Assembly: GCA_035473995.1 (NCBI GenBank)
Contig: DATINR010000132.1
Coordinates: 9,737-73,736, forward strand
Direction: 5' to 3'
Origin: Solirubrobacteraceae bacterium
GTDB lineage: Bacteria > Actinomycetota > Thermoleophilia > Solirubrobacterales > Solirubrobacteraceae
DNA length: 64,000 nucleotides
In this document: positions 2,230 through 42,513 of the stretch, in pieces
How the letters are laid out: each line of letters begins with the position of its first letter
Numbering within the stretch: position 1 is the stretch's first letter
Made by a program: the position numbers and the translations under genes
The notes under the pieces: generated by a model
The model's input: only the letters and a program-made list of their open reading frames with translations
Told to the model about the DNA's origin: nothing
Database searches by the model: none

Positions 2230-3228
2230 ATGGCTCCGCGTCTCGACGGGACTCTCGAATTCTGGCCTGATCTCGCAGAGGACTACGCGGGCGCCGCGCT
2301 GTTGTGCGGGAATGGCCTGAGCGTCAACGTCTGGCCGGCCTTCGCCTACGGATCGCTGTTCGAACACGCGCGCGATGGCGGGCTGACCGCCGAGGATCTC
2401 GAGCTCTTCGCCGACACCGAGAACTTCGAGCGGGTCCTCAGCGACCTCAATACCGCGATCCGTGTAAACGAGACACTGGCGCAGCCGACGGATGCGATCT
2501 TTGAGCGCTACCGCAGCATCCAGCGCGGTCTGGGTCATGCCGTGCGCGAGGTCCATCTAACGCGTACTCAGGTGCCGGACAGCGTCTTGACGCGGATCCG
2601 CGACGAGATCGTGGGCTACGAGTGGATCTTCAGCACCTCCTACGATCTCCTGCTCTATTGGGCGATGGGATGCGGCGGCAGCTTCTCCCCGTTCATCGAT
2701 CACTTCAGGCAGGCAGGCCTTCGCTTCGACCCCGACCGGGCGGACGTGTACGCGGGCCAGGTGCCGGTTTACTTCCTTCACGGCGCCCTCCATCTCGTAG
2801 TGGGTGGATCCGGTGTCACGTGGAAGCTGCGCCGCAACGCGATTCAGTCCGTGCTCGATCAATTCGGTGAGCCGATCGAGGGCGACCCGCAGGCCAGGCC
2901 GTTGCTTGTCAGCGAGGGCACCGCGCGCGACAAGCTGCGCGCGATCGAGGGGAACGCCTACCTTGCGAGTGCGCTGCAGACGCTGCGTGAGCTCGAGCTG
3001 CCGGTGGTCGTGTTCGGGAGCAGCCTGGGGCTGCAGGACGACCATCTGCTCGACGCGTTGAACGAGCATCCGACGCGACCGATCGCGATTTCGCTGCTGC
3101 CCGGCAACAGACGCCAAGTCGCAGCACGGCAGGCCGATATCTACGCCCGTCTGGAAACGGACGAGTTGCGATTCTTCGATGCGACCAGCCACCCACTGGG
3201 CGATCGAGCGCTCAAAGTCCCGCAGTGA
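2230..3228 (+). CDS. DUF4917-family SIR2-like (DHS-like NAD-binding fold) protein
   Basis: LLCGNGLS, FSTSYDLLLYW, YFLHGALHL, VVFGSSL motifs. Confidence 0.7.
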   Translation: MAPRLDGTLEFWPDLAEDYAGAALLCGNGLSVNVWPAFAYGSLFEHARDGGLTAEDLELFADTENFERVLSDLNTAIRVNETLAQPTDAIFERYRSIQRGLGHAVREVHLTRTQVPDSVLTRIRDEIVGYEWIFSTSYDLLLYWAMGCGGSFSPFIDHFRQAGLRFDPDRADVYAGQVPVYFLHGALHLVVGGSGVTWKLRRNAIQSVLDQFGEPIEGDPQARPLLVSEGTARDKLRAIEGNAYLASALQTLRELELPVVVFGSSLGLQDDHLLDALNEHPTRPIAISLLPGNRRQVAARQADIYARLETDELRFFDATSHPLGDRALKVPQ

Positions 3229-3302
3229 TCACGTTCAGCGAGCCGTCACCAGGCGTGCGTAAGATGAGAAGCGTTGTCGAGAGAGATCGAGAAAGGCTCC
3301 CA

Positions 3303-3545
3303 ATGGCGAGCACGCGAAAAGTCAGGAAGCACCCCTCGGGAGGTTGGGACATTCTCCGGGAGGGCGACCGCCGCGCTGCGGTCCGCGTCGAGACCAAGGA
3401 GAAGGCGTTGGCGCGGGCACGGGATCAGGTGCGTCGCGAGGGCGGCGGGGAGGTCCGGGTCGTGAATGACGCCGGCAAGATCGTGCGGTCGAGTCGCATC
3501 AAAGCGCAGCCCGGACGCGGAACCCGGCGCGCCAAAGCGGCGTAG
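3303..3545 (+). CDS. DUF2188-family small basic protein
   Basis: HPSGGWDI...TKEKALARAR...GGEVRVVNDAGKI pattern; AAAGG RBS before ATG 3303 (ORF track start 3225). Confidence 0.7.
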   Translation: MASTRKVRKHPSGGWDILREGDRRAAVRVETKEKALARARDQVRREGGGEVRVVNDAGKIVRSSRIKAQPGRGTRRAKAA

Positions 3546-3581
3546 TCGGCGCCGCGAGTTCGCTTTAGACGCTCCTGCCGG

Positions 3582-4559
3582 CTAGTGCAGCGCGAACGCC
3601 CCGCGCAGGATGACCGGACCGGGTTTGGTCGGCTTCGAGGCCGTCTCGCGGGTGAGCAGCATCGTGTGGTACTTGGCGGCGTCTTTGGGCAGCAGTGCGC
3701 CGCCCTGCACGTTGCCGCTCGAGCCGACGTCGGGCGCGCGGCTGAGCGCCTCGTAGCTCGACGGCGAGTTGTACAGCCAGACGGCGTAGAAGAAGCCCTT
3801 GCCTTTGGAGGGGGCGAGGTGCTGGGCGGCTAGGTAGAAGGCGTACTGGTTGCCTTCGGAGAGCACCTCGGCGACGCCGACCGCCTTGCTGCCGGCGTCG
3901 GCCGGCGTCAGCGTGATGCGCTTGTCTTCTTTGGCCTGCGGTTTCTGCGTGCTCGTGGTGCCTGAGCCGGTCGTTTCGCCGCCGCCGCCCGAATTGGCCG
4001 AGTCGCTCGAGGAACCGCCACCCCCGGTCAGCAGCACGATCGCGACGACGATCGCCGCGACGATCGCGGCCAGCAGCAGCGCGCCGCGGATGCGCGCGGG
4101 CGAGGCCGAGCGGGGCCGGGCCCCGCGCGGCGGGCGAGGCGACGTGGCGGGCGGGGTACCGGCTACTCCGGTTGCGGTGGTCGCAGGCGTCGCGGCCGGG
4201 CTGGCGCCGTTGGGAATCTCGGGCAGGGGTGCACCTGCCAGCGGCTCGAGCTCGCCCGTGAGCGCCGTGGCCCACGCGCGCGCTTGCGGCGAGCCGTCGA
4301 GGTACGTGCGTGTGGCTAGGCGCTCGGCTACGCCTGTGCGCTGCCCCAGCAGGTAGTCGCCGACCTCCTCGCGCTGCGGTGCCGTCAGCTCACGGGCCTG
4401 GGGCGCCGCGAGCACGGCGAGCGCCGCGTGCGCGCGATCGTGCACGGCGCGCTCGTCGATGTCGAGCATGCCGGCGACCTCCGCGTAGCTCTTGCCCCTG
4501 CGAAGGAGCAGCGAGAGCGTCGCGCGCTGGTCGGGGGGGAGGTCGTCCAGTCGGCTCAT
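3582..4559 (-). CDS. Sigma-70 region-4-like HTH fused to anti-sigma (RskA-like) architecture with one TM helix
   Basis: N-term LDDLPPDQRATLSL...SYAEVAGMLDIDERAVHDR, helical segment, Pro/Ala linker, TM, Ser/Gly/Thr linker, C-terminal beta domain (FYAVWLY...MLLTRE...PGPVIL). Confidence 0.65.
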   Translation of the reverse strand: MSRLDDLPPDQRATLSLLLRRGKSYAEVAGMLDIDERAVHDRAHAALAVLAAPQARELTAPQREEVGDYLLGQRTGVAERLATRTYLDGSPQARAWATALTGELEPLAGAPLPEIPNGASPAATPATTATGVAGTPPATSPRPPRGARPRSASPARIRGALLLAAIVAAIVVAIVLLTGGGGSSSDSANSGGGGETTGSGTTSTQKPQAKEDKRITLTPADAGSKAVGVAEVLSEGNQYAFYLAAQHLAPSKGKGFFYAVWLYNSPSSYEALSRAPDVGSSGNVQGGALLPKDAAKYHTMLLTRETASKPTKPGPVILRGAFALH

Positions 4560-11690: not shown

Positions 11691-11706
11691 ACGAACAATT
11701 GTTCGA
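11691..11706. promoter_or_regulatory. LexA (SOS) box ACGAACAATTGTTCGA
   Basis: 15/16 match to actinobacterial TCGAAC-N4-GTTCGA; perfect 14-bp palindrome directly after -10 TAGCCT. Confidence 0.75.
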
Positions 11707-11707
11707 C

Positions 11708-11872
11708 TGCCGAGTCGTGACCGTCCATGGTCGCGAACGGGGGAACCACCGCCGGGCCCGACCGGGGCCCGGATGGGGCGAATCGCCCACTGATGTGGAC
11801 GTAACGCCCGGCCGACGCGCGGACTGTCCGCGCCGGCGCCGGTCGCGAGCCCGACAGCTAACCCCGTAGGCG
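11708..11872 (+). ncRNA. c-di-AMP riboswitch (ydaO/yuaA class)
   Basis: Ordered conserved segments GCCGAGTC...GGGGAACC...GGGGCGAATC...CCCGACAGCTAACCCCGTAGGC, then hairpin GCGG-AAA-CCGC, AAGGAGG RBS and a cell-wall enzyme gene (typical context). Confidence 0.85.
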
Positions 11873-11898
11873 GAAACCGCAAGGAGGTCTGGATCTAT

Positions 11899-30105: not shown

Positions 30106-30789
30106 CTATGCCGCGATTTCTACTTCGATTTCTTTTCCTTCTTTTTTGAAGGCGGTCATCGTGTCGACCGTTTCCACGCCCGCAAATTCGAATTCAGGCG
30201 AGTTGCGCGCGGTTTCGAGCTTGCAGGTGATGAATTTTTCTTCCTCGTTGAAGACTTCGACGATGTCGTTGACGCCTTTTTCCTGCTTGAATTCCGTCAC
30301 GAGTTCTTTCGTTTTTTTATTGAGAGGTTTGACTAAGCCAGCCATACAGCCTCGAAGTTTCACGATCGTTTTGCCGCATTCGATTTTCGCTTCGGTTGGT
30401 AAGAAGACGAGTCCCGTTTGTAATGCTTTCGTTAATAAGACGTACCACACGTGGAAGGCGCCTTTGAGCGTGATCTGCTGTTCTTTGTCGCCGGTGCCTA
30501 AGCAGGAGGTTTTTCCTTCGGTTAAGCAGGCCATGAAGGTGGTCGAGAATTCGCCTAATTTTAAGCCCGTAACTTTGCCTGTGCCCGTGCCTTTTTCGCA
30601 GTTGATCTGAAAGCCGTTTTTTTCTTCGAAGTGAGTGATGCCGTGTTTGGCGGTGAATTCGATCGGTACTTTTGCCGTTGCTTCGGGTAAGAATTGAGGT
30701 TTCACCGCGGCGCTCGCCGGGGCAGCTGCGATTGCGCTCATTGCGGCAACTGCCACGAGCGCGCCGATCAGTGCTCTTGGCAACTTCAT
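30106..30789 (-). CDS. Secreted Lys/Glu-rich hypothetical protein with 6 Cys and AT-rich coding sequence
   Basis: Signal peptide MKLPRALIG...PASA, AAGGAG RBS, beta-rich mature part. Confidence 0.75.
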   Translation of the reverse strand: MKLPRALIGALVAVAAMSAIAAAPASAAVKPQFLPEATAKVPIEFTAKHGITHFEEKNGFQINCEKGTGTGKVTGLKLGEFSTTFMACLTEGKTSCLGTGDKEQQITLKGAFHVWYVLLTKALQTGLVFLPTEAKIECGKTIVKLRGCMAGLVKPLNKKTKELVTEFKQEKGVNDIVEVFNEEEKFITCKLETARNSPEFEFAGVETVDTMTAFKKEGKEIEVEIAA

Positions 30790-32882: not shown

Positions 32883-33863
32883 TTACGCGGCCTCGCGCAG
32901 TGCCGCCAGCTCAGGCGACTCGGCGAGCTTCTTCAGCGCGCGCTGCTCGAGCTGTGAGGCACGCTCGGCCGAGAAGCCGAGCCTTTTGCCGATCGCCGTC
33001 AGCGTCTGCGGCTCCTCTCGGCCGGTGCCGAAGCGCAGCGTCAGCACGGTGCGCTCGGTCTCGGGCAGCTCGGAGATCGCGCGGTGCACGATCCGCTCGC
33101 GCTCGTTGTCCCAGGCCGTCTCCTCCGGCGCCTCCGCGTCGGAGGGGAGCAGGTCGCCGAGCGCGGTGTCGCCGTCTTCGCCGATCTGCTGGTCGAGCGA
33201 TACGAGGGCCGCGCGCTGGTGGCGCACCTCCTCGACCTGCTCGATCGGCAGCCCGGTCTCCTCGGCGAGCTCCTCGATCGTCGGCTCGCGCCCGAGCCTG
33301 ACCGACAGCTCGCGCTCGACCCGGCCGACCTTGCGCGAGCGCTGAGCGACGTGCACGGGCAGGCGGATCGTGCGCCCCGAGTTCTCCAGGCCGCGCTGAA
33401 TGGCCTGGCGGATCCACAGGGTCGCGTACGTGGAGAAGCGGAAGCCCTTGCGCCAATCGAACTTCTCCGAGGCGCGAATCAGGCCGAGCATGCCCTCCTG
33501 GACAAGATCGCCCAAGGGCAGGCCCTGGTTCTGGTAGCGCCTGGCGTTCGAAGCCACGAGGCGCAGGTTGGAGTTGACGAGCAGTTCCTTGGCGTGCAGG
33601 TCGCCGCGCTCGATCCGCTGAGCCAGGTCGATCTCCTGGGCCGGCGTGAGCAGCGGGTAGCGGCGCGAATGCGCCAGCAGCTGGTCTACCGCCTCCGGGA
33701 TGAACGAATCGGGCGTGCTCAGGTCGAGCTTCTCGATCGGGCTGTCGAGCCTGTCCGGCGCAGCCTTCGGCGTCTCCTCAACCGTCTCAGGCTCGTGCTC
33801 AGCCGTGATCTCGGTCGTGGGCCGCTCTATCGTTGGGGTTGAACTTCTGGGGGAATCTGGCAT
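32883..33863 (-). CDS. RNA polymerase sigma-70 factor, RpoD/SigA-like but lacking region 1.1 (group-2-like)
   Basis: Region 1.2 PLLTPAQE, NLRLV, DLVQEG..GLIRA.EKFD..KGFRFSTYA..WIRQAI, TIRLPVH, region-4 HTH. Confidence 0.93.
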   Translation of the reverse strand: MPDSPRSSTPTIERPTTEITAEHEPETVEETPKAAPDRLDSPIEKLDLSTPDSFIPEAVDQLLAHSRRYPLLTPAQEIDLAQRIERGDLHAKELLVNSNLRLVASNARRYQNQGLPLGDLVQEGMLGLIRASEKFDWRKGFRFSTYATLWIRQAIQRGLENSGRTIRLPVHVAQRSRKVGRVERELSVRLGREPTIEELAEETGLPIEQVEEVRHQRAALVSLDQQIGEDGDTALGDLLPSDAEAPEETAWDNERERIVHRAISELPETERTVLTLRFGTGREEPQTLTAIGKRLGFSAERASQLEQRALKKLAESPELAALREAA

Positions 33864-33895: not shown

Positions 33896-33924
33896 ATTAT
33901 ACGCCGCGATAGTTGCGTTGTCAA
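33896..33924 (-). promoter_or_regulatory. Perfect consensus promoter TTGACA-N17-TATAAT
   Basis: Minus strand TTGACA ACGCAACTATCGCGGCG TATAAT, 32 bp upstream of the sigma factor ATG. Confidence 0.85.
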
Positions 33925-34926: not shown

Positions 34927-34953
34927 GGGAAGGTTCTCCACTGCGCGGCGTCT
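34927..34953 (+). promoter_or_regulatory. ECF-sigma-like promoter copy 1 (GGGAAG-N17-GTCT)
   Basis: GGGAAGGTTCTCCACTGCGCGGCGTCT; same spacing as 38555 and 41988. Confidence 0.65.
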
Positions 34954-35001
34954 GAGGGTCTGAAGCAAGAAGCACCGACCCCAGCGACAGGAGGCCACAC
35001 A

Positions 35002-35583
35002 GTGAGACGTCCCCTTGCGCTCGGCGCAGCCGCGACCGCAGTCGCGCTGCTCGCCGGATGCGGCAGCAGCAGCTCGAGCAGCAGCAGCTCCACCGCCGCC
35101 TCGACCCCGGCGTCGACGGCGAGCACGGCTGCATCGACGAGCACGACCGCCGCAGCAGGCCCCGGCGTAGCCGTCGAAAGCAAGCACGCCAAGCTCGGCA
35201 CGATCCTCGCCGCCGGGCCGAAGAAGCTGACCGTGTACATGTTCGAGGCCGACAAGGGGACGACGTCGAGCTGCAGCGGCGCCTGCGCCAAGGTGTGGCC
35301 GCCCGTGACCACCTCCGGTGCGCCCACCGCCGCCGGCGGCGCCGTCAGCGCCGACCTCGGCACGACCAAGCGCTCCGACGGCACAGAACAGGTCACCTAC
35401 AAGGGCCACCCGCTGTACTTCTACGACGACGACAAGGACGCCGGCGACGCCTACGGCCAGGGCTCGAAGGCGTTCGGCGCGAGTTGGTACGTGCTCAACC
35501 CGAGCGGCGCGAAGATCGACGAGGACTCGGGCGGCAGCAAGGGCGGCGGCTCCGGCGGCTCGGGCTACGGTTCGCAATCGTGA
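35002..35583 (+). CDS. COG4315-type (Lipoprotein_15 repeat) lipoprotein
   Basis: Lipobox LLAGC, Ser/Thr linker, TVYMFEAD..C.GACAKVWPP and QVTYKGHPLYFY..D repeats; AGGAGG RBS. Confidence 0.85.
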   Translation: MRRPLALGAAATAVALLAGCGSSSSSSSSSTAASTPASTASTAASTSTTAAAGPGVAVESKHAKLGTILAAGPKKLTVYMFEADKGTTSSCSGACAKVWPPVTTSGAPTAAGGAVSADLGTTKRSDGTEQVTYKGHPLYFYDDDKDAGDAYGQGSKAFGASWYVLNPSGAKIDEDSGGSKGGGSGGSGYGSQS

Positions 35584-35712
35584 GGTAGCCGCAATGCTTG
35601 CGCCGGGCTGTGGCGGCCCGGCGTCGAGGGGGGTGGGGATGAACAGCTCGGCGGGGGCGGTCGCGACTGGCGGCGGCCGCTCCGCCGGGTCCCCATCCCG
35701 CGCGCCCAGGCG

Positions 35713-36150
35713 CTAGTCGACCGCCTGCCCGTTGGCCGTCAGCAGCACGTCGATGTTGCCGCGCGTCGCGTTCGAGTACGGGCAGACCTTGTGCCCCGCG
35801 CGCACGAGCTCGGCCGCCTGCTCGGCGTCCTCGATCGAGGGCAGCCTCACGTGCAGCTCCACCGCGACCGTGAACGCGCGGTCCTCGGTCGTGACCAGCG
35901 AGACCTTCGAGTCGACTTCGACATCGTCTGCCTCCACCTTCATCCGCCGCGACACCGTTTGCAGCGCGCTCTCGAAGCACGCCGCGTAGCCGACCGCGAA
36001 CAGCTGCTCCGGGTTCGTGCCGTCCTCCTCGCCGCCAAGCTCCTTCGGCACGCGCAGGTCGACCTCGAGCGCGCCGTCCGACGTGCGCCCGTGGCCGTCT
36101 TTGCGCCCGCCAGTGACGTGCGCTTCGGCTGTGTACAGAGCTTTGCTCAT
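35713..36150 (-). CDS. ohr: Organic hydroperoxide resistance protein
   Basis: GGRKDG, TNPEQLFAVGYAACF, HKVCPYSNATRGN. Confidence 0.93.
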   Translation of the reverse strand: MSKALYTAEAHVTGGRKDGHGRTSDGALEVDLRVPKELGGEEDGTNPEQLFAVGYAACFESALQTVSRRMKVEADDVEVDSKVSLVTTEDRAFTVAVELHVRLPSIEDAEQAAELVRAGHKVCPYSNATRGNIDVLLTANGQAVD

Positions 36151-36201
36151 GCAGTTCCCTCCGGCTGGTTCGTTCTGATCAATTAATAAATAGATGGCCG
36201 C

Positions 36202-37143
36202 TCAGGCAGTCCCGCCGGTCGGCGCGACGGACTCGATCTCGAGCAGCTCGCCGCCCGCGTGGTCGACCTGCAGTGTCGTGTGGTCGAGCGCGAAGCGCTC
36301 GTGCAGCATCGCCTCCATCGCGCGCCGTGCCTGGTGGCAGTTGCAGTCGGCGCCGACCAGCACGTGCGCCGAGAGCGCCGGGAAGCCGCTCGAGATTTCC
36401 CACACGTGCAGGTCGTGCACCTCGACCACGCCCGGTGCTGCCACCAGCGCACGGCCGATCGCCTGCGGGTCGAGGTCCTCCGGCGCCGCCTCCATGAAGA
36501 TCCGCGCCGAGGCCTTCACCAGCATCACGCCCGAGCGCGTCATCAGCGCCGCGATCAGCAGCGAGACGATCGGGTCCGCGCGCTGAAAGTGAGTCGCCAG
36601 GATCACGATCGCCGCCACCGCCGTGCCGATGAACGCCCACAGGTCCGTCAGCAGGTGCTGGAAGGAGCCCTCGATGTTGAGGCTTTCGCGGTTCGCCTTC
36701 GCCAGCGTCCACGTCGCCACCAGGTTGACGAGCACGCCAACGAGCGCCACGACCAGGATCAGCCAGCCGCGCACGACCGGCGGGTCGAACAGGCGGCGGA
36801 TGCCCTCGTATGCGATGAACGCCGCCAGGATCAACAGCGTCACGCCGTTGGCCTGCGCCGAGAGGATCTCCGCGCGCTTGAAGCCGAACGTCATCGCGCC
36901 CTTCGCCGGACGCGCCGCCAGCGTGATCGCGAACAGCGAGAAGCCGATCGCAGCTGCGTCCGTGAGCATGTGCCCCGCGTCCGAGAGCAGCGCCAGCGAG
37001 TGCGCGACCACGCCGACGGCCACCTCCGCCGCCATGAACGCCAGGATCAGCCCGAGCGCCAGCGCCAGGCGACCGCGGTCCGCGTCGGCGCGCACAGCGT
37101 GCGTGTGGCCTGCATGGGAGTGCCCCGCGTGCTCGTTCCTCAT
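36202..37143 (-). CDS. Cation diffusion facilitator, CzcD/ZitB-like (Zn/Co/Cd)
   Basis: His-rich N-terminus, LSDAGHMLTD, HLLTD, VHDLHVW, HTTLQ. Confidence 0.92.
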   Translation of the reverse strand: MRNEHAGHSHAGHTHAVRADADRGRLALALGLILAFMAAEVAVGVVAHSLALLSDAGHMLTDAAAIGFSLFAITLAARPAKGAMTFGFKRAEILSAQANGVTLLILAAFIAYEGIRRLFDPPVVRGWLILVVALVGVLVNLVATWTLAKANRESLNIEGSFQHLLTDLWAFIGTAVAAIVILATHFQRADPIVSLLIAALMTRSGVMLVKASARIFMEAAPEDLDPQAIGRALVAAPGVVEVHDLHVWEISSGFPALSAHVLVGADCNCHQARRAMEAMLHERFALDHTTLQVDHAGGELLEIESVAPTGGTA

Positions 37144-37165
37144 CGACCCAGATTAGGCTCTAGTC
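37144..37165. promoter_or_regulatory. Back-to-back overlapping -10 elements of two leaderless CDF genes
   Basis: Plus TAGGCT 37154-37159 then N6-ATG; minus TAATCT 37155-37150 then N6-ATG; shared TA. Confidence 0.65.
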
Positions 37166-38545
37166 ATGGCGTCCGCTGGCGAGAGGCACGAGACGCTCAC
37201 TCCACGGCGCACCACGCTCGTCTCGATCGCCGCCGCCTCGCTGCTCGTCGCGCTGAAGCTCGGCGTCGGTCTCGCCACCGGCAGCCTCGGCCTGATCTCG
37301 ACCGGGATCGAGTCCAGCGGCGACGTCGTCGCCGCCGTGCTGACCTTCTTCGCCGTGCGCCTCGGCGGGCGCCCCGCCGACCCCGAGCACCCCTACGGCC
37401 ACCGCCGCGCCGAGAACCTCGGGGCGCTCGGCGAGGCCGGCATCCTGCTCGCCGGCGGGCTGTTCGTCGCCACCGAAGCGATCGGCCACCTCGTGCGCGA
37501 CTCCGCGCCCCCGACGATCCACTGGTTCCAGTTCGCCGTGATCGCCGTCGCGCTGATCGTCGATCTCAGTCGCACGCTCGTCTCGCTGCGCGTCGCCCGG
37601 CGCTTCTCCAGCGCCGCGCTGCGCTCCAACGCCTTCCACTTCGCCGGCGACATGACCGCCTCCGTCGCCGTGCTCGTCGGCCTCGTGCTCGTCGACGCCG
37701 GCTTCGCCCAGGGCGACTCGATCGCCGCGCTGCTCGTCGCCGTGATCGTCTGCGCCGCGGCCGTGCGCCTGATCGGCGAGAACGCCAACGTGCTGATGGA
37801 CCGCACGCCCGTCGAGGCGCGCCAGGCCGCCGAGCGCGCGATCGCCGCGCTCGGCGCCGATATTGAGCTGAGCCGCCTGCGCCTGCGCGAGTCCGCCGGG
37901 CGCTACTTCGCCGACGTCGTCGTCACCGTGCCGCCCGGGCAGGCCGTCGTCGAGGGCCACCAGTCCGCCAACCTGATCGAGGCCGCCGTCGAGTCCGCGC
38001 TGCCCGGCTCCGACGTCGTCGTGCACGTCGAGCCGCGCCGCCGTGGCCTCGACCTGCGCGATCGGATCCTCGCGAGCGCCCTCGCCGAGCCGCTCGTGCG
38101 CGAGGCACACGACATCACCATCTTCGAGCAGCCCGGCGGCGTCAACGTCTCACTGCACCTCAAGTTCCCCGCCGAGCTGGAGCTGCGCGAGGCCGCCCAG
38201 ATCGCCGATCGCGTCGAGCGCGCCATCTGCGAGCGCCCCGAGGTCGCCGCCGTGCAAACCCATCTCGAGCCGCTCGAGCGCCCGCTCGCCGAGCGCCCCG
38301 CCGACGTCAGCGCCGACCTGCGCGCCACGCGCGAGATCGAACGGCTCGTGCGTGAGCGCACGGGGGAGGGGCCCGAGCGGATCAAGCTGCTCTCCACCGA
38401 CGCCGGGCGCGTCGTCTTTCTCACGCTCGAGGTCGATCCTGACGAGTCGCTGACCGCCGCGCATCGGCTTGCCTCCGAGCTGGAGGAGGCGCTGCGCCAG
38501 CGGGTGCCCGACATCGCCGATGTCGTGATTCGGACCGAGCCCTGA
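37166..38545 (+). CDS. Cation diffusion facilitator, FieF-like, with three C-terminal dimerisation-type domains
   Basis: ESSGD and HFAGD metal motifs, PAD..HPYGH.R.E; three repeats ending HVEP/HLEP/RTEP. Confidence 0.85.
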   Translation: MASAGERHETLTPRRTTLVSIAAASLLVALKLGVGLATGSLGLISTGIESSGDVVAAVLTFFAVRLGGRPADPEHPYGHRRAENLGALGEAGILLAGGLFVATEAIGHLVRDSAPPTIHWFQFAVIAVALIVDLSRTLVSLRVARRFSSAALRSNAFHFAGDMTASVAVLVGLVLVDAGFAQGDSIAALLVAVIVCAAAVRLIGENANVLMDRTPVEARQAAERAIAALGADIELSRLRLRESAGRYFADVVVTVPPGQAVVEGHQSANLIEAAVESALPGSDVVVHVEPRRRGLDLRDRILASALAEPLVREAHDITIFEQPGGVNVSLHLKFPAELELREAAQIADRVERAICERPEVAAVQTHLEPLERPLAERPADVSADLRATREIERLVRERTGEGPERIKLLSTDAGRVVFLTLEVDPDESLTAAHRLASELEEALRQRVPDIADVVIRTEP

Positions 38546-38554
38546 GCCACGCCG

Positions 38555-38581
38555 GGGAAGCTTCCGGCGCACGCGGCGTCT
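38555..38581 (+). promoter_or_regulatory. ECF-sigma-like promoter copy 2
   Basis: GGGAAGCTTCCGGCGCACGCGGCGTCT. Confidence 0.65.
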
Positions 38582-38622
38582 AGAGGTGCAGAGGACCCAG
38601 ACGACCGAAAGGTAGCCCCCCG

Positions 38623-39243
38623 ATGCCCAAGTCAGCGCGAGCAGCACAAGCCGGATCCCGCAATCCCAACCGCCACAGGCGTATGTGGCTCGTCCTCGGC
38701 GCAGTCGCGGCCGCGGCGCTCGCCACGGTCGTTGCCACGGCGCTCGCCGCCGGCTCCTCGCTGACGCTCAGCTCGAACTCGAGCTCGATGCTCGGCAAGC
38801 CGGTCGTCGTAAACCCGCAAGGCCGCACGCTCTACCACCTGAGCCCCGAGACGAGTAGGCACTTGCTGTGCAAGAGCAAGGAATGCCTGACCAACTGGCC
38901 CCCGCTGACGGTCAAGTCGGCGAAGACGAAGCTGAAGGCCGGCTCTGGCGTCAAAGGCAAGCTAGCCCTGCTGCACCGTAGTAACGGGACGCTCCAGGTC
39001 ACGCTGAACGGCCTGCCGCTGTATCGCTACGCCGGCGACAGCGCCAAGAACGACGTCAACGGCGAGGGGATCGAAAGCTTCGGCGGGATCTGGCACGCCG
39101 TGAAGGCTTCGAGCAGCTCCGGCACGACACCAACGACACCAACGACGCCAACGACGCCAACGACGACGACCGGTACGACGACCACGCCGACGACGACGAC
39201 ACCGACCACCACGACCCCGGAACCGCCGCCCTACAAATACTGA
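38623..39243 (+). CDS. Secreted COG4315-type protein with Thr/Pro tail
   Basis: GRTLYHL..C..KECLTNWPPL, QVTLNGLPLYRYAGD, GIWH. Confidence 0.8.
   Translation: MPKSARAAQAGSRNPNRHRRMWLVLGAVAAAALATVVATALAAGSSLTLSSNSSSMLGKPVVVNPQGRTLYHLSPETSRHLLCKSKECLTNWPPLTVKSAKTKLKAGSGVKGKLALLHRSNGTLQVTLNGLPLYRYAGDSAKNDVNGEGIESFGGIWHAVKASSSSGTTPTTPTTPTTPTTTTGTTTTPTTTTPTTTTPEPPPYKY
39124..39159 (+). repeat. 9-bp tandem repeat ACGAC(A/G)CCA x4 (TTP repeats)
   Basis: Read directly in the Thr/Pro tail. Confidence 0.8.
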
Positions 39244-39256
39244 TTGGACTCGGCCG

Positions 39257-40510
39257 CTACTCGCGTTCGAGCTCGGCCATCTGCGCGGGCACGATCGCGA
39301 GGAAGCCCGTGCAGAGGAAGCCGAGCAGGGCGAGCACGCCGATCGCGTGCGCCCAGCCGGCTTCGGCGACGGTGAGCGTGCCGAAGCCGACCAGCAGGCA
39401 GGCGCCGGCAGCGCGCGTGAGCAGCCCCGAGGAGGAGACGGCGAGCAGTTGCGTCAGCCCGCCGCCGTCGGAAGCAGCCAGCGCCGGGGCGCCGCCTGCG
39501 TCCTCGCCGTAGTCCAGGCGCCCGCGCAGCACGAGGCGGAACAGCAGCGCGAGCGAGGGGAAAAGGATCAGCCCGCCGCCGAGCACGGCGACGATCACGA
39601 GCACGAGCGTGTCGTGTGGGGCGGCGGCCTGCTGCACGGTCAGCCCTTGCAGCAGCACCGGCCGCTGCGCGAGCGCCCAGCCGGCGATCACGGCGGCGAC
39701 GGCCAGCGCGGCGCTGTAGCGGGCGAGCTCGAAGCGGCGCACGAACACGAGCGCGAGCGTGACAAGGCCGGCCAGCGCGGAGACGATCACGGCCGCGAGC
39801 GCGCTGCCTTCGAGCAGGCGCGTGTAGAGGAAGTGCGCGTCTGAATGCAGCACCACGAGCCCCGCGACGGCGACGAGTCCGGCCACGGCGCCCGCCACGA
39901 GCGCCCGCACGCGCAGCGCCTCCTGCAGCTCGCGCGGGCGCCCGGTGCGCTTGGCGTCCGCGGCGAGGAAGACGGCCGCGACGTAAGCGCTGTTGGCGAC
40001 GGCAAGCGACCCCACGAGCAGCGCCGTGGCGCCGGTCCAGCTGGAGAGCAGGTCGCCGGCGGCGTTGCCGACGGGCACCTGCCGCGCGGCGATCGCGCCG
40101 ATCACGGTGCCCAGCGCGAATGGCGTGAGCACCGAGGAGAGCGCGAACACGAGGTCGACGCGGTCCTGCTCGCGCACGCTCGAAGTGCCGGCGCGCAGCG
40201 CGTAGGCGGCGCCGCGCATGACGATCCCCAGCGCGGCGATGAACAGCGGCACGCACAGCGTCGAGGCGATCGCGCCGAACGCGCTCGGGTAGGCCGTCCA
40301 GGTGACGGTCAGCACGAAGATCAGCCACACGTGGTTGGCCTCCCACACGGGCGCCATCGCCTCGTGCGCGTGGTCGCGGATCGGCGCGCCGCGCTCGCCG
40401 GGGCCTGCCAGGAGCTGCCAGAAGCCGGCGCCGAAATCGGCCCCGGCGAGCACCGCGTAGAGCGCGAGGCCGACGAGCACGAAGATCAGCGGGATCTCGT
40501 ACAGGTGCAT
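39257..40510 (-). CDS. cydB: Cytochrome bd ubiquinol oxidase subunit II with C-terminal extension
   Basis: LAGADFGAG, PVWEANHVWLIF; directly downstream of cydA. Confidence 0.92.
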   Translation of the reverse strand: MHLYEIPLIFVLVGLALYAVLAGADFGAGFWQLLAGPGERGAPIRDHAHEAMAPVWEANHVWLIFVLTVTWTAYPSAFGAIASTLCVPLFIAALGIVMRGAAYALRAGTSSVREQDRVDLVFALSSVLTPFALGTVIGAIAARQVPVGNAAGDLLSSWTGATALLVGSLAVANSAYVAAVFLAADAKRTGRPRELQEALRVRALVAGAVAGLVAVAGLVVLHSDAHFLYTRLLEGSALAAVIVSALAGLVTLALVFVRRFELARYSAALAVAAVIAGWALAQRPVLLQGLTVQQAAAPHDTLVLVIVAVLGGGLILFPSLALLFRLVLRGRLDYGEDAGGAPALAASDGGGLTQLLAVSSSGLLTRAAGACLLVGFGTLTVAEAGWAHAIGVLALLGFLCTGFLAIVPAQMAELERE

Positions 40511-40511
40511 C

Positions 40512-41837
40512 TCAGCCGGCCGCCTTCAGCGGCGCGCGTGCCAACCGGCGCAGGATCCACACGACGCCGCAGGCGACGCCGAGGTAGACGAGCGCGAGTG
40601 CGGTGTAGCCGACGACGATCCCGCCGGCGCCGGTGACGGCTTCGGAGGTGAGCATCACGTGGTAGACGACCCACGGCTGGCGCCCGACCTCGGTCGTCAC
40701 CCAGCCCGCGATCAGCGCGACCAGCGAGGCCGGCCCGGCGAGCGCGACGGCGCGGTAGAACCACGGCGACTCGGGCAATCGCTTGCGTCTGATGCGCACG
40801 CCGAGCAACCACACGCCGAGCAGCGCGAGCAGCGTGCCGATCCCGACCATCGCCTGGAAGGCGAAGCGCACGACGTTGATCGGCGGCTGGCGGTCCTTGG
40901 GCACCGTGTCGAGACCCTGGACGGTCGCTTCGGGGTTGTGGAAAGCGAGCAAGGACAGCAGTTTGGGGATGGCGATCCCGTATTTGATCTTTTCGTCTTC
41001 GTACCAGCCGAGGATGTGCTCGGAGGCGCCCTTGGTCGTGTGCGCGAGACCCTCCAAGGCGGCGAGCTTGACGGGCTGCTGCACGGCGACGTCGCGCGCG
41101 GCCCAGTCGCCGACGAGCACCTGCACGGGCGAGGCCAGGGCGGCGATCGTCAGCGGGATCGCGAGCGCGGTGCGCTCGTAGCGGGTGGGCGGGCGTCCCT
41201 TACCGCGCAGCCTGCCGATCGCATAGGCGCCGGCGACGAGGAAGCCGGTGACGATGTAGCCGGCGATGTACATGTGCGTGAGCTCGGGCCAGAGGAAGCC
41301 GTTGGCGAACAGGGCCTTCAGCGGGTGCACGTCGACGGCGTGCCCGCCGACCATGCGAAAGCCGCCGGGATGGTTCATCCAGGCGTTGACGGCGATCACC
41401 ATCAGCGAGCCGGTCATGCCGGCGATCACGATCGGGATCCCGCTCCGGAAATGCGCGCGCGGCGAGAGTCGGTTCCAGCCGTAGATGTAGATGCCGATGA
41501 AGATGGCCTCCATGAAGAAGGAGAAGCCCTCGATCGCGAAGCCGAGCCCGAACACGCTGCCGAAGGTGGCCGTGAAGTTCGGCCACAAGAGCCCCATCTC
41601 GAAGCTGAGGATCGTGCCGGTGATCACGCCGACGGCGAACAGCGCCGCCATGATCCGCGTCCAGCGGCGCGCGAGCGTGCGGTAGAGCTCGTCGCCGGAG
41701 CGCAGGTACAGCCACTCGCAGAACAGCACCATCGCGGGGAAGGCGATGCCGAAGCAGACGAGCGGGATGTGCACGGCGAACGACAGAGCCTGCATCTGTC
41801 GCGCCTCCGGCAGGTAGGCCTGGTGCGCCGCGCCCAT
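40512..41837 (-). CDS. cydA: Cytochrome bd ubiquinol oxidase subunit I (short Q-loop)
   Basis: VHIPL, GTILSFEMG, EGFSFFME, QPVKLAALEG, FQAMVG, GWVTTEVGRQPW. Confidence 0.95.
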   Translation of the reverse strand: MGAAHQAYLPEARQMQALSFAVHIPLVCFGIAFPAMVLFCEWLYLRSGDELYRTLARRWTRIMAALFAVGVITGTILSFEMGLLWPNFTATFGSVFGLGFAIEGFSFFMEAIFIGIYIYGWNRLSPRAHFRSGIPIVIAGMTGSLMVIAVNAWMNHPGGFRMVGGHAVDVHPLKALFANGFLWPELTHMYIAGYIVTGFLVAGAYAIGRLRGKGRPPTRYERTALAIPLTIAALASPVQVLVGDWAARDVAVQQPVKLAALEGLAHTTKGASEHILGWYEDEKIKYGIAIPKLLSLLAFHNPEATVQGLDTVPKDRQPPINVVRFAFQAMVGIGTLLALLGVWLLGVRIRRKRLPESPWFYRAVALAGPASLVALIAGWVTTEVGRQPWVVYHVMLTSEAVTGAGGIVVGYTALALVYLGVACGVVWILRRLARAPLKAAG

Positions 41838-41987
41838 CGCACCTGTTGGTATACCGGCGCGGGCGGTCGGCCGTCGGTTGCCTTCGAGCACCCGGCCACC
41901 GCGTCGCGCGTGCGGCCGAGGCGTATGCTGCGCAGCGGTGAAGGCGCCCGGACGTTCGTGCGGCCGAAGGGGGCGGTGCAGCGGAGC

Positions 41988-42014
41988 GGGAAGGATCCAC
42001 GCCGGGCGGTGTCC
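41988..42014 (+). promoter_or_regulatory. ECF-sigma-like promoter copy 3
   Basis: GGGAAGGATCCACGCCGGGCGGTGTCC. Confidence 0.55.
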
Positions 42015-42048
42015 TATGTTGCGAAGACCCCGACCAATGGAGGATCTG

Positions 42049-42513
42049 ATGCGTAGCAAGGCCCTGTTCTCGATGGCGGCGCTCGCCGCGGCGCTGCTGG
42101 CGCTCGCCGGCTGCGGCAGCTCGTCATCCAGCTCCTCCTCGTCCTCGGCGAGCACGCCGGCCGAAGCGCCGACGACGAGCTCGGCGAGCACCTCGACACC
42201 CGCGCCCGCGAGCGAATCGGGCGGCTCGGAAAAGGTCAGCCTGGAAGCCAATCCGGAAGGCCAGCTCGAATACAACACGAAGTCACTGAGTGCAAAGGCC
42301 GGCAAGGTCTCGGTCGACTTCACCAACTCCTCCTCGCTGCCGCACAACGTGACGATCGAATCCTCGGGCGGCGAACAGGTCGGCGCGACACCGACGTTCT
42401 CGGGCGGCTCGAAGAGCGTGTCGGTGAACCTCAAGCCGGGCACGTACAAGTTCTTCTGCTCCGTCCCCGGCCATCGCCAGGCGGGCATGGAAGGGACGCT
42501 GACGGTCAAGTAG
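42049..42513 (+). CDS. Blue-copper (plastocyanin/azurin-like) lipoprotein
   Basis: Lipobox LALAGC, PHNV and FFCSVPGHRQAGM type-1 Cu ligands; GGAGG RBS. Confidence 0.92.
   Translation: MRSKALFSMAALAAALLALAGCGSSSSSSSSSSASTPAEAPTTSSASTSTPAPASESGGSEKVSLEANPEGQLEYNTKSLSAKAGKVSVDFTNSSSLPHNVTIESSGGEQVGATPTFSGGSKSVSVNLKPGTYKFFCSVPGHRQAGMEGTLTVK

Follow-up and report, generated by a model that had tools for sequence, protein, structure and literature searches.

A putative extracytoplasmic-function-type promoter shared by Lipoprotein_15 and blue-copper protein genes in uncultured Solirubrobacteraceae

Within a 64,000-nucleotide stretch of DNA from a Solirubrobacteraceae metagenome bin (contig C132, positions 9737-73736; hereafter the window), two genes for COG4315 proteins and one gene for a type-1 copper lipoprotein (a cupredoxin) are each preceded by the same two-block element, and the locus raises the question of whether this element is a promoter and, if so, which sigma factor reads it. 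The original prediction, made from the window alone, proposed that a shared promoter of the extracytoplasmic function (ECF) type here defines a regulon of three exported, putatively metal-binding proteins. By extending the analysis to the whole assembly (G000; 3,212,880 bases, 70% G+C, 202 contigs) and to related genomes, we confirmed that the finding is real and that the earlier reading is supported and can be extended. Judged from sequence, the three sites appear to be promoters, and we consider it likely that they belong to a single ECF (group 4) sigma factor, the best candidate being a factor encoded on another contig, here called sigma A. The elements and their genes are as follows:

34927..34953, + strand: putative ECF-type promoter 1 (GGGAAGGTTC...CGGCGTCT); -35 GGGAAG, -10 CGTC(T); position weight matrix (PWM) score 28.5
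38555..38581, + strand: putative ECF-type promoter 2 (GGGAAGCTTC...CGGCGTCT), in the 77-nt gap after a CDF gene; PWM score 15.1
41988..42014, + strand: putative ECF-type promoter 3 (GGGAAGGATCC...CGGTGTCC), in the divergent cydA/cupredoxin intergenic region; PWM score 29.4, the top match of the genome
35002..35583, + strand: COG4315_1, a Lipoprotein_15 lipoprotein; PF03640 85.2 bits (cut-off 24.4); lipobox LLAGC; CxxxC-x3-WPP; GHPLY
38623..39243, + strand: COG4315_2, a signal-anchored Lipoprotein_15 protein with a Thr/Pro-rich tail; PF03640 65.8 bits (cut-off 24.4)
42049..42513, + strand: type-1 copper (plastocyanin/amicyanin-like) lipoprotein; PF00127 Copper-bind 51.2 bits (cut-off 21.2); lipobox LAGC

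The bipartite element in the window and in relatives

The pattern GGGAAG[GC][AT]TC-N7-[CG]GCGG[CT]GTC[CT] has exactly three matches in the window, all on the + strand, at 34927 (GGGAAGGTTCTCCACTGCGCGGCGTCT), 38555 (GGGAAGCTTCCGGCGCACGCGGCGTCT) and 41988 (GGGAAGGATCCACGCCGGGCGGTGTCC). Three is still the window count when up to two mismatches are allowed, against an expectation of 0.00 in 100 dinucleotide-preserving shuffles, and outside the window the full pattern has no match anywhere in the assembly. The impression that the full motif is confined to these sites thus proved correct, and the fear that it might recur at random in a G+C-rich genome did not materialize. The geometry was likewise described exactly: the start of GGGAAG lies 23 bp ahead of GTC at all three sites, and the G of GTC lies 52, 45 and 38 nt before the respective start codons (GTG 35002, ATG 38623 and ATG 42049), leaving 35-49 nt between motif end and start codon with a Shine-Dalgarno sequence in between. 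Each site can be read as GGAAG-N16-CGTC(T), in agreement with the GGAAC-like -35 and CGTC/GTC-like -10 elements, 16-17 nt apart, that are looked for in ECF promoters.

Could the three copies be a coincidence, or a recently duplicated sequence without function? The loose core GGGAAG-N17-GTC lends this some colour, being only modestly over-represented in the window (3 copies versus 0.5 expected, a count reached by 3 of the 100 shuffles) and present 53 times genome-wide. However, the full motif has an expectation of nil, the flanks of the three window sites are mutually unrelated, and the two blocks are kept over an order-level range of species despite divergent spacers and flanks, so that the orthologue comparisons given below effectively refute this explanation, to which we attach next to no weight.

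These comparisons drew on the genus to which the bin belongs, an uncultured lineage of Solirubrobacteraceae represented here by 61 genomes. By hand count the pattern GGGAAS-N12-13-GCGGNGTC has approximately 213 matches in these genomes versus approximately 61 for the reversed pattern. When forty regions were picked by the motif alone and the downstream genes were then read, all but a few of the sites proved to stand before genes for exported proteins of a small number of families: lipoprotein cupredoxins orthologous to the third window gene, a 113-aa secreted cupredoxin, a cupredoxin of about 300 aa, three PF03640 types, an NHL-repeat protein of 370-420 aa, and an anti-sigma factor.

The converse approach, in which orthologues were gathered by protein similarity rather than by motif and their upstream regions then inspected, gave a matching picture. 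A motif variant precedes essentially all 29 orthologues of COG4315_1 (46-89% identity), with GGGAAGG(A/T)T or GTGAAAGGTTT at -35 and G(C/A/G)(G/A)TCT at -10. For the cupredoxin the motif stands before about 21 of 29 orthologues, and the remaining ones lie directly behind a COG4315 gene that itself bears the motif; operons of the order COG4315_1-(COG4315)-cupredoxin were seen in genomes G023, G056, G055, G013, G059, G073 and G058. Outside operons, COG4315_2-like genes carry the motif in 8 of 8 cases, site 2 being kept before orthologues in G046, G021, G067, G074, G024, G055, G014, G051, G063 and G005, and site 3 is likewise kept upstream of its orthologues. The claim that a shared ECF-type promoter marks a regulon of exported proteins is therefore borne out by orthologues that were chosen on similarity alone. 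Taken together, the sites give the consensus cGGGAAGG(A/T)TC - about 9 nt - CGG(C/T/A)GTC(T/C), that is GGAAG-N16-CGTC.

Two arrangements around the element recur among the relatives. In the first, a CDF metal-efflux gene ends (...CACACCGAGCCCTGA) and within 20-80 nt the element and then a COG4315 gene follow, an order found at window positions 38520-38581 and at L203, L204, L207, L211, L212, L214, L288, L292, L293 and L295. In the second, a conserved leader of about 150 nt (gaaagcgcgcgaaaggcgggccgtgcgttgatcgctgccgc...) separates the element from the gene for a 410-aa NHL-type lipoprotein (L029, L030, L037, L113 and L115); this leader has no Rfam match and might be a cis-regulatory RNA.

The length (about 27 nt) and high G+C content of the conserved block might also bring to mind an operator bound by an activator or repressor protein, or else an element acting at the RNA level, rather than a promoter. 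Against this, conservation is confined to the -35 and -10 blocks, with a spacer that varies by one base among relatives and with spacers and flanks that diverge, as is expected of a bipartite promoter. The motif is without dyad symmetry and is always directed at the gene, at a distance from the start codon that ranges in relatives from about 8 to more than 150 nt. Moreover, no sigma-70-type promoter that such an operator could control was found in the three intergenic regions, the motif regions have no match in Rfam, and the element both fits the GGAAC/CGTC pattern of ECF promoters and is tied to an ECF/anti-sigma locus. We therefore regard the operator or RNA alternative as very improbable.

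An ECF sigma/anti-sigma pair on another contig

If the sites are ECF promoters, which factor reads them? A Sigma70_r2 scan of the assembly returned 18 sigma genes. The sigma gene nearest the sites (32883-33863, minus strand) was rejected as the cognate factor since its product has regions 1.2, 2, 3 and 4 and is not an ECF sigma factor, which upholds the earlier statement that the cognate sigma is not adjacent. This group 2/3 sigma gene is itself preceded by a perfect TTGACA-N17-TATAAT at 33896-33924 (minus strand), which is unusual at 70% G+C. The search for ECF genes with the motif, suggested in the original prediction, led to an ECF/anti-sigma pair on contig C30, although there the motif precedes the anti-sigma gene and not the sigma gene:

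C30:4180-4821: sigma A, an ECF sigma factor; PF04542 and PF08281, PF07638 weak; no region 1.2 or 3
C30:4818-5540: anti-sigma A, a single-pass membrane protein; ATGA overlap with the sigma A stop codon (translational coupling)
C30:5609-5950: 113-aa secreted cupredoxin, adjoining the anti-sigma gene

Sigma A scores 62.9 bits with the sigma70-ECF model TIGR02937 (cut-off 42.9). Two copies of the element lie in this locus, one with the spacing of the window sites (GGGAACGAATCCGCTCCCGCGGAGTC), 20 nt before the anti-sigma ATG and within the sigma A open reading frame (ORF), and one with a spacer longer by a single base (GGGAAGTTCTGCCCCAGGCGCGGCGTCT), 8 nt before the cupredoxin ATG.

With an anti-sigma profile we retrieved 189 relatives and kept 80 loci, all from Solirubrobacterales. 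The motif precedes the anti-sigma start in every one of the 80, with the ATG at +20 nt in 62; in 74 of 79 loci the motif falls within the sigma ORF, and in 75 of 79 it occupies one and the same reading frame. Within the -10 of the embedded motif, Gly is encoded by GGA 68 times out of 70, although this codon accounts for 5.4% of Gly codons genome-wide; the -35 retains GAA, a codon with a 13% share among Glu codons. Such retention of rare codons points to a constraint on the DNA. Most other motif copies in these loci (51 of 56) stand before genes for the 300-aa cupredoxin (26), the 113-aa cupredoxin (19), COG4315 proteins (5) or the NHL protein (1), the 300-aa cupredoxin gene being divergent from sigma and the 113-aa gene following the anti-sigma gene. 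Furthermore, an orthologue of COG4315_1 is divergent from the sigma A orthologue (60-68% identity) in one clade, made up of G002, G009, G011, G022, G041, G060 and G075, and in at least three of these seven genomes the 113-aa cupredoxin gene follows that sigma-adjoining COG4315_1 orthologue. The earlier remark that COG4315 genes often neighbour ECF/anti-sigma pairs therefore stands for Solirubrobacterales, the sole order covered here. The anti-sigma A family itself occurs in 58 of the 61 genus genomes and in all 26 high-quality ones.

Anti-sigma A has no match in Pfam or NCBIfam and no sequence match in the PDB. Its predicted structure (mean predicted local distance difference test score, pLDDT, of 81, and >94 in the C-terminal beta domain) has a pair of short helices on the cytoplasmic side, one transmembrane helix and an extracytoplasmic domain that is all beta, for which the best hit of a PDB fold search was RseB, a weak match (E ~0.01, template modelling score 0.28) to be taken as a lead only.

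Regulon extent and a second ECF factor

To delimit the regulon in its own genome we used a two-block PWM built from 51 target sites of other species only, for which the maximum score in a reversed-genome control was 16.0; a PWM from the 80 anti-sigma sites was discarded as overfitted to coding-constrained spacer positions. The three highest-scoring matches of the genome are site 3 (29.4), the site of the 113-aa cupredoxin gene on C30 (28.7) and site 1 (28.5). Further matches are:

C95:890: PWM score 27.7, about 220 nt before a crotonase-family gene
C80:4444: PWM score 23.4, before the gene for a second ECF factor, sigma B
C30:4772: PWM score 19.8, the anti-sigma site
C11:30546: PWM score 16.4, before an SCO4226-like gene

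The regulon is thus larger than the three genes first proposed, all of which remain members: the same genome adds the anti-sigma gene and the small secreted cupredoxin gene, and relatives add two cupredoxin types, a third COG4315 type and the NHL-repeat protein. The other cupredoxins of the genome, on C92 (a cytochrome c fusion), C113 and C87, were rejected as members as they have no motif, and the site at C95:890 was set aside since its promoter is not conserved in relatives. That region (C95:890-1160) is nonetheless curious, in that GGGAAGGTTCGCCGCCGGCGGGCGTCT scores like the true sites and a strong intervening hairpin is kept in two relatives; a small RNA under ECF control, or a long leader, would be conceivable here. 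The C11 match (30546-30571, GGGAAGGAATCGGCTCGCGCGCAGTC), of borderline score, lies 38 nt before the gene for a 100-aa SCO4226-like cytoplasmic protein (PF14026, 'nickel responsive').

Sigma B (C80, approximately 3050-4444, minus strand) is a 455-aa protein in which a sigma part is joined to a transmembrane segment and to a Gly/Ser-rich tail some 200 aa long, and it provides the main competing explanation, namely that the sites are indeed ECF promoters but are served, in whole or in part, by sigma B. Sigma A would then be limited to the anti-sigma site of GGAGTC type, or the regulons of the two factors would overlap. The motif before the gene for sigma B fits the classic signature of an autoregulated ECF factor, and its orthologues keep ECF-type promoters (GGTAAG, GCAAGG or GTGAAG ... 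CGTCT). On the target-site PWM the C80 promoter scores higher than the anti-sigma A site (23.4 versus 19.8), and cross-talk between ECF factors through similar promoters is known from Sinorhizobium meliloti RpoE1 and RpoE4 (PMC3511301). On the other hand, sigma B orthologues were found in only about 28 of the 61 genus genomes, and motif-bearing targets also occur in genomes without sigma B (e.g. G024, G054, G072, G066, G021, G018 and G052). Target genes flank the sigma A locus, whereas none was seen beside sigma B in the upstream stretches inspected, and the -35 elements of the sigma B promoters (GGTAAG, GTGAAG) differ from the near-invariant GGGAAG of the targets. Given the patchy distribution of sigma B and the targets in genomes that lack it, sigma A is ranked first and a leading role for sigma B seems unlikely to us. 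Sigma A might still have sigma B among its targets, or the specificities of the two factors might overlap.

Several observations weigh against sigma A as the reader of the motif. The sigma A gene has no upstream ECF motif in any of 79 loci, so the argument from autoregulation is not available, leaving adjacency and the anti-sigma promoter as the grounds for the assignment. Positive autoregulation is usual for ECF factors, although not strictly required. The C80 promoter (GGTAAGGATCGGGCGATTCCGGCGTCTT; GGTAAGGATC...CGGCGTCT), 30 nt before the sigma B ATG, implies that sigma B could recognize the target sites as well. Nearly all anti-sigma sites have GGAGTC together with GGGAA(C/G)AA, while the targets mostly have GGCGTC or GGTGTC with GGGAAGG(A/T)T, a systematic difference that coding constraint may or may not explain. 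Window site 2, with its PWM score of 15.1, falls within noise and is rescued by its conservation before orthologues. In the sensor domain of the anti-sigma no conserved cluster of metal ligands was seen, only one invariant Cys. Finally, the window and C30 come from different contigs of a metagenome bin. In G046, the closest complete genome, however, one chromosome carries both the window orthologues (2.067-2.078 Mb) and the sigma A locus (2.967 Mb), so that the split over two contigs raises no binning worry.

Of 79 loci, 71 have CGGCGCTACAGTCGC upstream of the sigma A gene, in most cases 40-54 nt from the ATG and with no conserved -35, and gCTACAGTc also precedes a tRNA gene in the same genome; the TACAGT fits a -10 of the housekeeping type. 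The conservation of CGGCGCTACAGTCGC (C30:4123-4137; L117-L196, about 45-55 nt before the sigma ATG) is stronger than a -10 alone needs, its GGCG...CGCC forms a small inverted repeat, and in many loci the -35 of the divergent promoter of the 300-aa cupredoxin gene abuts it, such that the two promoters might exclude each other.

With sigma A as the presumed reader, the circuit might run as follows. The sigma A/anti-sigma operon would be transcribed constitutively, from a housekeeping-type promoter (-10 TACAGT), and an envelope cue would inactivate the anti-sigma. The sigma A set free in this way would transcribe the two Lipoprotein_15/COG4315 genes and the blue-copper lipoprotein gene from separate monocistronic promoters, along with the small secreted cupredoxin gene that adjoins the anti-sigma gene. 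The promoter in the last codons of sigma A would at the same time yield extra anti-sigma mRNA, giving negative feedback without positive autoregulation. Both this feedback logic and the assignment of the motif to sigma A are our inference from the arrangement of genes and sites, and it is speculative, going by gene content, that the cue is copper or a redox signal.

The three window genes are interleaved with others that are not members, identified by Pfam:

35713-36150, - strand: OsmC/Ohr; no motif upstream
36202-37143, - strand: CDF; no motif upstream
37166-38545, + strand: CDF; no motif upstream
39257-40510, - strand: cydB
40512 to about 41837, - strand: cydA; no minus-strand motif upstream

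That these genes lack the motif agrees with the original prediction, in which the regulon alternates with the CDF, ohr and cydAB genes without being co-transcribed with them. COG4315_1 converges with ohr, COG4315_2 with cydB and the cupredoxin gene with a DUF1275 gene, so that each of the three would be monocistronic. The intergenic region between cydA and the cupredoxin gene also holds GGCGTATGCT at 41920-41929, kept in close relatives (L228, L229, L231 and L252), whose TATGCT fits a TANNNT -10 on the + strand or could be a cydAB operator. Elsewhere in the window, a cyclic di-AMP (ydaO/yuaA) riboswitch was found at 11698-11888 (Rfam RF00379, 42.8 bits versus a gathering score of 38).

Protein properties and comparison with known systems

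The gene identities given earlier hold, with two matches to PF03640 and one to PF00127, the latter with a lipobox and copper ligands. The description of all three products as metal-binding has to be divided. In the cupredoxin the type-1 copper ligand set is complete (His...Cys-x4-His-x4-Met, in 'LPHNV' and FFCSVPGHRQAGM), as it is in the 113-aa protein of C30 and the 300-aa protein of relatives. The two COG4315 proteins pass the PF03640 gathering score, have a lipobox or signal anchor and contain 'PLYFYDDD' and 'PLYRYAGD', and close homologues are named 'predicted lipoprotein with Yx(FWY)xxD motif' or 'COG4315 family' by JGI/NCBI; for these, metal binding is unsupported. Their invariant residues are C91, C95, W99, P100, P101, a few Gly, Tyr, Asp and others, with H136 nearly invariant, and within the conserved motifs CxxxC-x3-WPP and GHPLY the candidate metal ligands amount to the CxxxC and one His. 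No PDB sequence match was found for COG4315, and a model of COG4315_1 of moderate quality (mean pLDDT 64) gave no fold match with E below 1. Although PF03640 is widespread, we know of neither a function nor a structure for the family. The tail of COG4315_2 (window 39120-39243, TTPTTPTTPTTTTGTTTTPTTTTPTTTTPEPPPYKY) is Thr/Pro-rich and resembles a glycosylated linker or cell-wall spacer. As for the wider role of the family, the CDF-promoter-COG4315 order and the operons with cupredoxins hint at metal or redox biology.

How does the putative sigma A system compare with those already described? The best PDB sequence matches of sigma A are SigE (E 1.7e-20) and SigH (E 6.7e-15) of Mycobacterium tuberculosis, and sigma A is likewise a two-domain ECF factor; it was rejected as a SigE orthologue with 78.6 bits on the equivalogue NF007229 (cut-off 265). 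SigE and SigH use GGAAC/GTT-type promoters, their anti-sigmas RseA and RshA are cytoplasmic zinc-binding proteins, and the mycobacterial genes are positively autoregulated. Here, by contrast, a membrane-spanning anti-sigma carries an extracytoplasmic domain of a new type, no motif stands before the sigma gene, and GTC takes the place of GTT at -10. A theme of copper, respiration and cytochrome bd recalls SigC of Corynebacterium glutamicum and M. tuberculosis, with its GGGAAC-type -35 and its cydAB and copper-related regulons, site 3 being divergent to cydAB. We know of no membrane anti-sigma for SigC. A SigC-type cydAB/copper regulon was rejected on the grounds that no minus-strand motif precedes cydA and that the region 4 similarity of sigma A to SigC is weak (E 5.5e-4).

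The RpoE4/SMc04050 system of S. meliloti has a small regulon that includes its own anti-sigma gene, sorT, a cytochrome c and the pseudoazurin azu2; there the pseudoazurin is co-transcribed with the sulfite oxidase that it presumably serves, and sulfite is the inducer (PMC3511301). The likeness extends to an anti-sigma gene and a blue copper protein within the regulon and to a second ECF factor with a similar promoter. That system is proteobacterial, and here cupredoxin genes stand alone or with COG4315 genes, with no partner enzyme evident. Both window COG4315 proteins have as their best NCBIfam match the 'SCO0930 family lipoprotein' (92.5 and 67.3 bits, below the cut-off of 275), and SCO0930 is listed in the SigU regulon of Streptomyces coelicolor (PMC6295645), the one literature link that was found for these proteins. 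SigU-RsuA, likened here by description only, similarly pairs an actinobacterial ECF factor with a membrane anti-sigma and a secreted-protein regulon that includes SCO0930, but the SigU regulon is described as made up of proteases and other secreted proteins, and not of cupredoxins. In kind, therefore, the system is not new, as ECF regulons with cupredoxins are already known (PMC3511301), while the PF03640-cupredoxin link, the promoter embedded in coding sequence and the new anti-sigma sensor domain were not found in the literature searched, which yielded no paper on COG4315 and none on ECF factors in Solirubrobacter.

What these results offer is the conversion of an unannotated motif into a testable regulon in abundant, uncultured soil Solirubrobacteraceae, a lineage without genetics. 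The PF03640/COG4315 family is tied to blue-copper proteins in three independent ways, by a shared promoter, by COG4315-(COG4315)-cupredoxin operons and by adjacency to the sigma/anti-sigma pair, and an anti-sigma sensor domain without family assignment has been identified. The putative anti-sigma promoter presents a clean case of a promoter inside coding sequence that is held by silent-site selection, and in the circuit proposed above it would give ECF negative feedback without positive autoregulation. As a tentative proposal that may well fail, sigma A and its anti-sigma might act as a switch dedicated to an extracytoplasmic module that pairs PF03640 proteins with type-1 copper proteins (e.g. 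in copper delivery or redox), governed by negative feedback only and triggered through the new RseB/LolA-like sensor domain. If that were true, the module would provide the first functional handle on PF03640, and the pair would represent an undescribed ECF group in Thermoleophilia.

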